This document shows positions 2,205 to 19,417 of a stretch of DNA of 64,000 nt, in pieces. A program made the position numbers and the translations under genes. The number at the start of each line of letters is the position of its first letter. Position 1 is the stretch's first letter. Source of the stretch: Callorhinchus milii (Eukaryota); NCBI RefSeq assembly GCF_018977255.1, contig NW_024704743.1, positions 17,238,001-17,302,000 on the forward strand. Reading direction: 5' to 3'. The notes under the pieces are model-generated. The model had not been told where the DNA came from and made no database searches. It saw nothing but the letters and a program-made list of their open reading frames with translations.

Positions 2205-2223
2205 ATGTCAATACCAAGCAAAG
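2205..2223 (+). CDS. ENTPD3: ENTPD3-like coding exon 1 (MSIPSK-G)
   Basis: Acceptor cag at 2181-2183, ATG at 2205, donor AAG|gtaac. Phase 1 matches the next exon. Short, so less certain. Confidence 0.65.
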
Positions 2224-17200: not shown

Positions 17201-19417
17201 GTACATAATTGTACGTATGAATTGTCTGTGAGTTATTTGGATGATTTATTTGGGAATACAGCTCTGTAGTTAGGCAGGAAATAGGCTTGTGTTGGGCCAT
17301 TACTTTAAAAATAGGAAATTGTGTCATTTTGACAGATTACCTGGATGCAATATCGATACAACTCATTGGAACAGCATAGAATATTTTTGTGTTTCAATTG
17401 TAAAGCAATGGACTGTAACTAAGATTTTGTTAAACAACAAAATCTTATCAATACGACTCTTTGGAACAGTGTCAACTGCAGCTTGTGTTGGTGGTGGTGT
17501 GGCGTTGGGAGGCCAAGCATTGATTGCTCATCCCTGTTTGTCCTGTCCTTGTGGCCTGATAGGCCTTTTCACAGGGCATCAAGAATCATCTAGGTAGTGT
17601 GGGATTGGATTCATACACAGGCCAGATTTTACTATAATCTCCCTGTAGGAGGGCATGGATTGCGTCTGGAAAATAAAACTTGTTTTGTGTAAGGGATTCC
17701 GGTAGCAGAGTGATGGGGTAATCAAACCTGGATGTGATAAAAGTGTGTATGGGTAGAACTATCCAAGGGGGAAACAGAGAGTGTGAGTTAACTCAGGTCA
17801 AAACAGTGTGAGGTAGCGTTAAACAAGGCATACAGGGTGTTGGACTGTATTGGGCTTCTAAACACTTTTTAAGCTAGGTGTCAGCTTGGCTCTGCTGATA
17901 ACACTTGGTTCTGAGTTAGAAAGTTGTGGGGTCAAGCCCCACATCGGAACTTTGAACTCACATAGTCTAGGCTGACAGTCCAGTGTAGTGTTGGGGTGCA
18001 TTGCATTATTGAGGTGCTATCCTTTGGAGGAAATGTTAAACCGAGGTCCCATCTGCCCGTTCAGGTTGAGTTGAAAGATCCCATGGTATTATTTGAAAAG
18101 AGCAGAAAGTTTTTTCCAGTGTACTAGATAACAATTCCCCAGATAAAATTAATCATTCATTTCATGGCTTTTGTGAGACACTGTCATGCGTAAATTGGCT
18201 GCACGTTCACCTACAAATACATAGTAACATGGTATGATGCACTTTGAGAAGTCTTGACACCATGAAAAGGTACTGTAAAATGCAGGGACTGCCCAAGCTA
18301 TAATAAAGGCAGTACAGAGAGGAGCAATGAAGGGGACCTTTCGTGTTACTGGAGTGAGCTCTGAGCATCGATTAGACAAAAAGTACTTAAAAGGAGATGT
18401 CTTGGAAAGGACCTTAAAGAGGTATTCAAGATTTAATAATTAAAAAAACTTGCATTTGATATAACGCCTCATCCCATCATTGAGCTATCTCAAAGCACTT
18501 CACAAAATATATTGTAAAATGGGTTGACTATATTTTGTGGGCGTTTTAAATGGGATTAAAGTAAACCCAGAATAATAATTTTGAGTGCAGAACCAAGAGG
18601 ACAGATTTTTAGGGCTGCAAAAGGCAATTACAGGACAGATACCAGGAAGTACTTGTTTATCCACTGGGTGATTAACAACTGGAACAGATTACCAGGAAGA
18701 GTGGTTGAGGCCAGGAACATGATGCTGTGGTGGGAAGGTGGTAGAGTGGGTATTCTGGAAGGATAAAATCAAATGGGACGAATGGCCTTCTTCATCTGAA
18801 CCTCTTGTGATCTTGTGATGAACGTATCTACAACTTGTAGTTATGATATTTTTTCTCAAAACATTTTACATATTGAGATTAATTAGAAATGAACTAATCT
18901 TGTTATGGCGGCAAACATTGTAGCTACTTTGTGTTGATAATATCCTCAAGCAATAATGATATAAATATAACTACTATATAAGACGCACTAAAGAGCTATT
19001 ACCTGTCTTACAGCTGAAATTTATATTACCAGATGATAAAGATTGTGATATCAGACAATACTGTTTTGACGGATTCCTAATGCATACACTGCTAATACAT
19101 GGGTACAAGTTTTCACCAATTCGCTGGAAAAAAATAAGTTTTATGGAAACTGTAAGTTTAGTTATTTTAAAAATAGCACAATTCAACTTTGTTTCTGCTT
19201 ATGCAAACACAATGCTGCAGTGTTCTTCTTGTTGCAGGTGAACGGAATCCATGTAAAATGGTCACTTGGTTACATGCTAAGTATCACCAATACGATTCCA
19301 CAAGAGATTGAAGAGATCAGAAGTAAAATATCTACAACTACATTTCAAATAGTTTTATCTGTGTTTGTAGGAACAGGGATAATTAGCATATTGGTCATTT
19401 GCAAGCTAATGTTGTAA
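2205..19417 (+). CDS. ENTPD3: ENTPD3-like ecto-NTPDase (CD39 family), 10 coding exons, 502 aa; catalytic motifs degenerate (candidate pseudoenzyme)
   Basis: join(2205..2223,3420..3544,5155..5272,10820..10970,13057..13216,15137..15370,16409..16681,16779..16889,19014..19151,19238..19417) = 1509 nt, open throughout, all GT-AG, phases consistent. N- and C-terminal TM segments. Family-typical strings include [40 protein letters not shown] and WSLGYML..TN.IP. Exon 7 most resembles NTPDase3 as I recall it, and the gene lies next to RPL14 as ENTPD3 does in mammals. Ortholog versus paralog status is unresolved. Confidence 0.9.
3420..3544 (+). CDS. ENTPD3: ENTPD3-like exon 2 (N-terminal TM helix)
   Basis: ttcacctag|GC...GAG|gtatgt; encodes [25 protein letters not shown]. 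Confidence 0.85.
4310..4740 (-). mobile_element. Degenerate CR1-type LINE 3' fragment
   Basis: Reverse complement resembles CR1 ORF2 C-terminal and 3'UTR sequence (…ttcacacaaagggtagtgagattttggaacttgctgcctgaagggggtggttaa…). Confidence 0.55.
5155..5272 (+). CDS. ENTPD3: ENTPD3-like exon 3 (ACR1 region)
   Basis: ttctttgtag|AAT...AAAG|gtagg; encodes [40 protein letters not shown]. Confidence 0.9.
5484..5730 (+). repeat. Compound tetranucleotide microsatellite (TTTC)n(TTGC)n(TTCC)n
   Basis: Directly visible; the source of the FLSF/LACL/KERK ORF artefacts. Confidence 0.98.
5731..9506 (+). mobile_element. Long LINE2 (CR1/L2 clade) copy with disrupted endonuclease and reverse transcriptase ORF
   Basis: APE-like [12 protein letters not shown]...ILALTETW near 6538-6640, [15 protein letters not shown], degenerate RT YADD region near 8510, [12 protein letters not shown], and 3' tail agcgccttgggacatcctcccgacgtgaaa...(TTG)n. 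Multiple stops and frameshifts. 5' boundary approximate. Confidence 0.9.
10820..10970 (+). CDS. ENTPD3: ENTPD3-like exon 4 (ACR2 region)
   Basis: cccgcag|GA...GGA|gtaag; encodes [50 protein letters not shown]. Confidence 0.9.
11290..11720 (+). repeat. Unclassified old interspersed repeat, copy 1
   Basis: Aligns by eye to the reverse complements of 58915-59245 and 46870-47035. Confidence 0.7.
12100..13008 (+). mobile_element. LINE2 3' fragment interrupted by a SINE body (about 12445-12720)
   Basis: [27 protein letters not shown]2 remnant, then SINE central and 3' parts, then the L2 3'UTR and tail. Confidence 0.8.
13057..13216 (+). CDS. ENTPD3: ENTPD3-like exon 5 (ACR3 region)
   Basis: tgtcag|G...CAG|gtaag; encodes ...[33 protein letters not shown]. 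Confidence 0.92.
13775..14150 (-). mobile_element. tRNA-derived SINE, long variant
   Basis: tRNA-like head, extra central segment, LINE2-like tail with (TAT)n. Confidence 0.85.
14668..15000 (-). mobile_element. tRNA-derived SINE, short variant, full length
   Basis: GGAGTCCTGTAGCTCAGT.GTTAGAGCACTCGCTTTGCAAGCGAGAGACCTG.GTTCAATTCC head (A and B boxes) through to a (TAT)n tail. Confidence 0.92.
15137..15370 (+). CDS. ENTPD3: ENTPD3-like exon 6 (ACR4 region)
   Basis: CAGCAG acceptor, donor CAG|gtaatt; encodes ...[16 protein letters not shown]...[26 protein letters not shown]. Confidence 0.92.
15390..16005 (+). mobile_element. CR1-type LINE 3' fragment
   Basis: Degenerate CR1 ORF2 C-terminus: [18 protein letters not shown] and [18 protein letters not shown] strings. 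Confidence 0.8.
16409..16681 (+). CDS. ENTPD3: ENTPD3-like exon 7
   Basis: caacttag|GCT...ATG|gtaaat; encodes SPCWPSGY...SLCT...GTGNPAKC...[23 protein letters not shown]. Confidence 0.93.
16779..16889 (+). CDS. ENTPD3: ENTPD3-like exon 8
   Basis: caatctag|GCG...GAG|gtaagt; encodes [12 protein letters not shown]...SFCTKGWAE. Confidence 0.92.
17878..18290 (+). mobile_element. Older SINE family with Deu-domain-like core
   Basis: Core gttaaaccgaggtcccatctgcc...aaagatcccatgg.a.tatttgaa.agagcag. Related copies at 21530-22030 (+), 38330-38635 (-), 51675-51920 (+) and 57905-58320 (-). Confidence 0.7.
19014..19151 (+). CDS. ENTPD3: ENTPD3-like exon 9
   Basis: cttacag|CTG...ACT|gtaagt; encodes ...[34 protein letters not shown]. 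Confidence 0.9.
19238..19417 (+). CDS. ENTPD3: ENTPD3-like exon 10 (ACR5, C-terminal TM helix, stop)
   Basis: gttgcag|GTG; encodes [21 protein letters not shown]...[24 protein letters not shown]. Confidence 0.9.
   Translation: MNGIHVKWSLGYMLSITNTIPQEIEEIRSKISTTTFQIVLSVFVGTGIISILVICKLML

Follow-up and report, generated by a model that had tools for sequence, protein, structure and literature searches.

Can a nucleotide-hydrolysing enzyme of the cell surface lose its catalytic residues and still be kept by selection and, if so, for what? The question is raised by a gene in a 64,000-nucleotide stretch of the Callorhinchus milii genome (C2:17238001-17302000; "the window" is that whole stretch, and its features are numbered from its first nucleotide). 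The gene is recorded as C. milii ENTPD3, isoforms X1-X4, and is referred to here as copy C, two further copies, A and B, lying upstream of it. Its relatives are ENTPD3/NTPDase3 of the GDA1_CD39 family (PF01150). The first four apyrase conserved regions (ACR1-4) are altered in copy C, and comparison of sequences indicates that fold and frame are under purifying selection while catalytic residues have been lost. Our preferred answer, held with doubt and confidence in about equal parts, is that copy C may be a maintained non-catalytic binding protein with a new ligand, acting in gamete or host-microbe contact.

An intact gene with an altered active site

Joining the ten exons of copy C (all on the plus strand) gives 1509 nt that encode 502 amino acids, with a single terminal stop. 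All nine introns are GT-AG and the protein has two hydrophobic helices, so that an earlier, sequence-only reading of this DNA, which had described an intact 10-exon frame of that length with canonical splice sites and two transmembrane (TM) helices, is borne out. It had counted ten ectodomain cysteines; the ten family cysteines are present, but so is an eleventh, C408. Six of nine scanned exon pieces match PF01150, as does the whole protein (E 7e-81). Two candidate 5' ends can be read from the sequence: an ATG at 2205, with a donor after 2223 (exon 1 being 2205-2223), or the RefSeq-type form, in which an upstream coding exon (1021-1032, MSPE) is joined to 2184-2301 and reproduces the longer N-terminus of the RefSeq models (527-539 aa). 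Exon 2 (3420-3544) encodes the first TM helix and exon 10 (19238-19417) an intact ACR5 (WSLGY), the second TM helix and the stop. One RefSeq isoform (X4) skips exon 6.

Residues are numbered as in mouse NTPDase3 (P0075); R67, Y375 and Y417 have the same numbers in the human protein of PMC12489842. Conservation is judged on 114 ENTPD3 rows (P0011-P0125) from the best 120 of 171 matches, with the C. milii rows set aside. ACR1, in exon 3 (5155-5272), carries D62E (5170-5172), G64S, R67S and T68S. ACR2 (10942-10962, in exon 4, 10820-10970) carries A140N, G141A and M142V, with R143 kept. In exon 5 (13057-13216), which encodes ACR3, the catalytic E182 is replaced by Leu (13163-13165) and G186 by Asn, while W187 and N191 are kept. 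Exon 6 (15137-15370), with ACR4, carries D219H (15197-15199), A223V, T225A, Q226H (15218-15220) and, on the ribose side of the site, D265Y, with S224 kept. Both base-stacking tyrosines are replaced, Y375 by His in exon 8 (16779-16889) and Y417 by Asp in exon 9 (19014-19151), which also encodes C408. The sequence-only reading had reported the same ACR1-4 motifs.

Nine of the changed residues (D62, G64, A140, G141, M142, E182, G186, D219 and A223) are 100% conserved in the aligned orthologues, and none of 113-114 shares with copy C its Glu at D62, Ser at G64, Leu at E182 or His at D219 and Q226. Neither DXG motif survives (ACR1 reads EAS and ACR4 HLG), the phosphate-loop residues G64 and G141 are both exchanged, and three of the substitutions (E182L, G64S and G186N) are in codons that differ between copies C and A at two or three bases. 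What is kept comprises T139, R143, E181, W187, G221, G222, S224, R264, W459 and ACR5. According to PMC12489842, both DXG aspartates contact the cofactor metal and Y375 and Y417 stack on the base; PMC7646477 calls E174 of CD39 essential, the residue that the sequence-only reading had named as the general base and that aligns with L174 of copy C. A three-column screen (D62/E182/D219) took in 149 of 150 library representatives, P0010, a copy A isoform, being left out; of the 116 that cover all three columns, 110 are unchanged, five have one change, copy B has two and none has three. There is thus a strong inference, from sequence, that Ca/Mg-dependent NTP/NDP hydrolysis has been lost.

Elasmobranch ENTPD3 has its own ACR4 departure: in 8/8 sequences (P0056, P0093, P0100, P0104, P0108, P0118-P0120) Glu replaces the conserved Gln226. 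Such tolerance of Q226E, together with retention of E181, could be taken to mean that copy C is still an NTPDase of low or shifted activity with the neighbouring E181 as its base. With D62, E182 and D219 invariant in 113-114 orthologues, and no screened representative changed at all three (the only one with two being copy B), we regard that as very improbable.

The substitutions are not assembly errors, the outcome on which the sequence-only reading had said it would fall. Contigs of an independent run, X9, cross introns and cover ACR2, ACR3 and ACR4 with no other letters, and the identical protein (P0003) stands under XP_0078963 and XP_0421876 accessions, from two annotation rounds of RefSeq. 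An allelic reading of seven coding differences in run X9 was discarded: all seven match a retrocopy on C5 (see below).

Three copies in tandem

Copies A (C2:17190674-17203423, 17.191-17.203 Mb; XP_007896326) and B (C2:17209852-17229974, 17.210-17.230 Mb; XP_007896322-5) lie upstream of copy C on the same strand, each intact, with nine coding exons in the phases of C. RPL14 follows directly downstream (exon at 28435-28557, minus strand) and marks the ENTPD3 locus; we take RPL14 to be the neighbour of human ENTPD3 too. Copy A keeps D62, E182, D219, S224, Q226, Y375 and Y417. Copy B has D62E, G141E, D219A, G221V and S224A, with E182 kept, and has D62E, T225A and Q226H in common with C. The sequence-only reading had missed that its gene is one of three beside a canonical one. 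It had suggested a search for a separate canonical ENTPD3, and elsewhere in the genome a shark ENTPD3 query found none (53 of 69 candidates matched, and these lie in the C2 triplet, on C7 and C8 and in the C5 retrocopy), but copy A, with D62, E182 and D219, sits in the same array. The six NTPDase loci on C7 and C8 have an intact ACR4; five of these further genes lie in two C8 clusters (18.56-18.59 and 21.11-21.13 Mb) and one on C7 (28.13-28.14 Mb).

A tree built from 28 hand-picked proteins (ENTPD2 not among them) supports the clade (A,(B,C)) at 100/100 and places it as sister to eight elasmobranch ENTPD3 sequences at 99/99, with B+C at 89/86. Copy C groups with ENTPD3 and not with ENTPD1/8 (100/100), which upholds the ENTPD3-like identity proposed earlier. 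ENTPD3 is shown, by gene order and tree, to have been tandem-triplicated in the chimaera lineage. Pairwise synonymous divergence (dS) among the copies is 0.37-0.42, and the triplication is therefore old. The stem of the triplet is 0.59 long, and copy A too has lost conserved features (see below): the locus changed before it was triplicated. Copy C is 58% identical to copy A and about 40% to other ENTPD3, but in the middle of exon 7 (16409-16681, in the C-terminal lobe) A and C agree at 93-98% of positions, a likely result of gene conversion.

By descent and predicted fold, then, copy C belongs to the ENTPD3 clade. It resembles ENTPD3 and copy A in exon structure and phases, TM helices, disulfide cysteines, ACR5, fold, clade and the RPL14 neighbour. 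It is unlike them in D62E, G64S, E182L, D219H, Q226H, Y375H, Y417D and altered TM residues, and so in its sequence lacks what marks an active E-NTPDase (the DXG motifs, the catalytic Glu and the Tyr pair). Copy B is its sister, also with an intact frame and with ACR1, 2 and 4 altered; B differs in keeping E182, in the weaker constraint on its scaffold and in that no retrocopies of it were found.

Several observations concern the array itself. Copy A lacks the N81 glycan site, Q44 and P481, and its ectodomain is very basic (+28). Copy B has the highest ratio of nonsynonymous to synonymous change (dN/dS) at variable sites (1.6-2.0), lacks exon 7 in both RefSeq sequences examined and has an inverted exon-9-like fragment in intron 8 (C2:17228138-17228227, minus strand). 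The UniProt entry V9KLG9 (P0008) is a hybrid of a copy A 5' part and a copy C 3' part, switching in the near-identical part of exon 7, and is either an artefact or a fusion allele; P0008 and P0127/P0128, in which A or B is combined with C, are provisionally taken as assembly or prediction chimeras.

Constraint on the scaffold, change in the pocket

If columns at least 97% uniform in the orthologues, with copy A at consensus, are called invariant, copy C has changed 12/26 of those in the ACRs and 2/75 of those in the scaffold (P=5e-7), and both scaffold changes adjoin ACR1. Within exons 3-6 alone the counts are 12/22 and 2/40 (P=2e-5). In copy B the contrast is unclear (9/26 and 13/75, P=0.06). 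On the copy C branch dN/dS is 1.9-2.3 for ACR codons (bootstrap P(w<=1) 0.013-0.037), 0.22-0.26 for the scaffold and 1.2-1.5 for the remaining sites; this test by site class excludes four pocket positions that were added after their change had been seen. The scaffold of copy B, at 0.63-0.79, is under weaker constraint. Neutral change at the dS of the C branch should have brought about eight stops and 22 scaffold changes, where copy C has none and two, and 3000 neutral simulations yielded neither a stop-free frame nor a case with two or fewer scaffold changes. Copy C has no stops, frameshifts or broken splice sites, and its change is not uniform. These contrasts, and the spliced transcripts described next, sustain the earlier suggestion of a maintained protein rather than a decaying pseudogene.

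Transcripts, retrocopies and a SINE

Contigs of four of 14 runs (X2, X4, X6 and X9), presumed to be RNA, were compared with copy C. A contig of run X6 joins exons 6 and 7 and one of run X4 joins exons 8 and 9, exactly and with no other letters in either, which bears on the earlier call for RNA-seq across the junctions. Because exon 7 is covered by no retrocopy and the X4 contig begins upstream of the longest one, these are spliced transcripts and not retrocopies; copy C is transcribed and spliced. The word share of runs X1-X3 is 0.69, with 0.688 expected for spliced exons 7+8. Where contigs are missing (exon 5 in runs X4 and X6, exon 6 in X2 and X4), nothing follows from their absence by itself.

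Fixed retrocopies require messenger RNA in the germ line or early embryo. Four 5'-truncated retrocopies of the 3' end of copy C are found on C3, C4 (two) and C5 (L026-L029), 91-96% identical to it; two span removed introns, and together they carry four stop codons. No retrocopies of copies A or B were found. The existence of the four implies, as far as sequence can, transcription of copy C in the germ line or early embryo. Directly 3' of its stop, and in copy C only, lies a tRNA-headed short interspersed element (SINE; 19434-19748, plus strand), and its (TTA)n tail is where three of the four retrocopies terminate. A SINE in the 3' untranslated region (UTR) can favour retrocopies of weakly expressed genes (PMC5199112), and the tail probably recruited the enzyme of a long interspersed element (LINE) (PMC3747384; PMC5199112). 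The retrocopies are of some interest in their own right, as four that include the copy C 3'UTR SINE, a SINE tail turning a host mRNA into a LINE substrate; the one at C4:80.70 Mb has been split by a later insertion of ~1 kb.

Fold, membrane helices and surface

The structure model of copy C has the NTPDase fold (mean predicted local distance difference test, pLDDT, 89), which is expected given the alignment supplied to it, the single-sequence prediction reaching a pLDDT of 33. Its best Foldseek matches are NTPDase2/1 (E ~1e-41), and an ESM Atlas search with copy C returned ENTPD clusters only. The traits of cell-surface E-NTPDases (1/2/3/8), two TM helices and five disulfides, are present in sequence and model. 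Between C and A, however, the TM helices are identical at only 5/22 and 7/21 positions, and Q44, P481, G489 and C501 (88-96% in orthologues), which presumably matter in oligomers, are absent from all three copies. The copy C ectodomain, unlike that of other ENTPD3, is basic and has few glycan sequons (net charge +16 and 2 sequons; median -3 and 8 in 105 orthologues). A fast, basic, glycan-poor surface is common to A, B and C.

What copy C may do

The course of events shown by the sequences begins with the tandem triplication in the chimaera lineage, copy A retaining its catalytic residues. The B+C ancestor then acquired D62E, T225A and Q226H. In C there followed the exchange of the general base (E182L) and of the second metal Asp (D219H), along with phosphate-loop glycines and the two tyrosines that stack the base; disulfides, core Trp/Gly/Pro and both TM helices were retained. 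The product should fold and sit in the membrane with its two-lobed ectodomain outside; it is predicted to be unable to turn over Ca/Mg-ATP or ADP and to bind nucleotides poorly. Its cleft, remodelled under what may have been diversifying selection, and its basic, glycan-poor surface might accommodate a ligand that is new and itself evolving rapidly, such as a protein, a polyanion or the surface of a microbe. Contact at the gamete surface or between host and microbe is the likeliest setting, since the frame is held although pocket and surface are changing as fast as neutral sequence or faster. A non-catalytic binder is favoured because a pure nucleotide decoy should have kept its base-binding residues, and a pure partner in oligomers should have TM helices resembling those of A.

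Those two alternatives, both among the roles that the sequence-only reading had offered, are weakened by the same facts. A sensor or decoy would bind ATP or ADP and leave it uncleaved, for which the retention of S224, T139, G221, G222, R143, R264 and ACR5 and the basic ectodomain could be adduced. But the tyrosine pair that stacks the base has gone, as have D265, R67, G64 and G141, and D409 would occupy the base-stacking spot (on the description of that site in PMC12489842); we give this role a slim chance. A modulator would co-assemble through its TM helices with A or another NTPDase and lower or tune the activity of the oligomer. An NTPDase3 splice variant has reportedly been proposed as a modulator (Crawford 2007). 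Copy C is the tandem neighbour of an active-looking A and keeps both TM helices, and oligomers are more active than monomers (PMC7646477). The low TM identity to A and the loss of the four conserved residues (Q44, P481, G489 and C501) from every copy speak against dominant-negative action of this kind, as does the pocket, in which such a role needs no change above the neutral rate. It is, we think, unlikely.

A third alternative makes the pocket a new enzyme or metal site: the metal Asp pair and the water-positioning Gln have become E54, H212 and H219 (in copy C numbering; D62E, D219H and Q226H above), whose longer side chains might hold zinc or another transition metal directly and support other chemistry. 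In active enzymes the Asp C-gamma is ~4.8 Å from the cofactor (PMC12489842), so that longer residues could reach it; R143, S224, W187 and W459 are kept, and the ACRs change faster than neutral. The general base, however, is now Leu, and copy B has the same Glu and His but an Ala at 219, which means that the two copies do not share the triad. There is perhaps an outside chance of it. A broader version, in which the cleft of the duplicates is a new site, either through Glu/His/His of C (E54, H212, H219) binding a transition metal or through a gamete or microbe partner, and in which B and C would form a first cell-surface pseudo-NTPDase subfamily with a gained function, is doubtful but deserves to be stated.

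A number of observations count against the non-catalytic binder that we prefer. Over the gene as a whole the C branch has a dN/dS of 1.04 (0.72-1.68), which taken alone looks neutral. The excess above 1 in the ACRs is modest, resting on three sequences and a counting method; at least 12/26 ACR changes arise by neutral simulation with P=0.055, and two of the 12 are also in B. Since retroposition copy C has acquired nine nonsynonymous changes and one synonymous, not different from neutral (P 0.2-0.3), and outside CpG sites exon 10 has changed at 5.1%, nominally above the ~2-3% of neutral sequence. Splicing looks loose. The depth of run X2 suggests that exon 5 is joined to exon 7 and ACR4 thereby removed, as it is in RefSeq isoform X4, and three runs have contigs that extend into intron 4. 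If the SINE tail recruited the LINE enzyme, the transcript level may be low, and high or specific germline expression is not shown by the retrocopies. The basic surface and fast variable sites are also those of copy A and not specific to C. Finally, the sequence-only reading had looked to relatives for orthologues with the same ACR changes, and no second species with the dead motifs was found; searches in other chimaeras gave no full-length record and are weak negatives, one word-based search having missed even copy A. A 94-aa record from another source (P0289), which is a relative, covers exon 7 with intron read-through and no ACRs, and is 76% identical to C and 77% to A.

Several of these points (the overall dN/dS near 1, exon skipping with intron read-through, a single species known) are what one would expect of a duplicate that is still transcribed but has no function and is turning into a pseudogene, and a very recent loss of function would be compatible with them too. 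Neutral decay, however, strikes scaffold and pocket alike and should have left its stops by now; the contrast between ACRs and scaffold holds outside the converted exon 7; and the retrocopies of copy C itself gained their four stops over a much shorter time. The whole-gene value is, rather, a mix of constraint and acceleration, and as the check that the sequence-only reading had put forward it would mislead. We regard the pseudogene as improbable and consider it probable, taking together all readings in which copy C is maintained and is not an NTPDase, that one of them applies.

Comparable proteins

Dead surface duplicates that keep their fold, lose catalysis, evolve fast and act by binding are familiar from sperm, in ADAM2/3 and SPACA3. 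These have other folds, and experiments have established what they do; for copy C only germline or early-embryo transcription is inferred. Nearer in descent is mt-PCPH, a truncated ENTPD5 oncoprotein that, like copy C, is a catalytically inactive NTPDase-family protein for which protein contacts have been proposed. It is unlike copy C in being cut short by a frameshift: the parent enzyme is intracellular or secreted, and the truncated form lacks the second lobe but still has ACR1-4 (PMC3829800); copy C is full-length and germline-encoded and loses its ACRs. Arabidopsis APY7 is a two-TM apyrase with a function that does not complement yeast apyrase mutants; it differs in being a plant, intracellular protein with an extra C-terminal domain (PMC10824444). 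Pseudoenzymes from tandem duplication are already known as a kind, and the known inactive relatives of NTPDases are truncations or an unusual plant apyrase. Literature searches, with most subscription journals outside their scope, found no description of the Callorhinchus ENTPD3 triplet gene or of a full-length vertebrate pseudo-NTPDase, in agreement with the sequence-only reading, which had known of no such protein at the vertebrate cell surface.

Other features of the window

On the minus strand at 39184-40134 is one long frame that matches L7Ae and RNase P Pop3 profiles; it is presumably RPP38. Tandem repeats lie at 2-763, 31795-32121, 42880-45704 and 61516-64000, and comprise a 30-bp G-rich array upstream of copy C, a 23-bp array (98% matches) inside RPL14 and CT/CA-rich arrays.

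Significance

A single annotation name, ENTPD3, hides one enzyme and two altered copies at this locus. The reach of the finding is limited to one lineage and, so far, one species. Roles independent of activity have been suspected for CD39-family enzymes and are, in mammals, hard to part from catalysis; a full-length copy that is dead, selected for and placed beside its active sister would make the comparison of A with C a test of what the NTPDase scaffold may do without hydrolysis.

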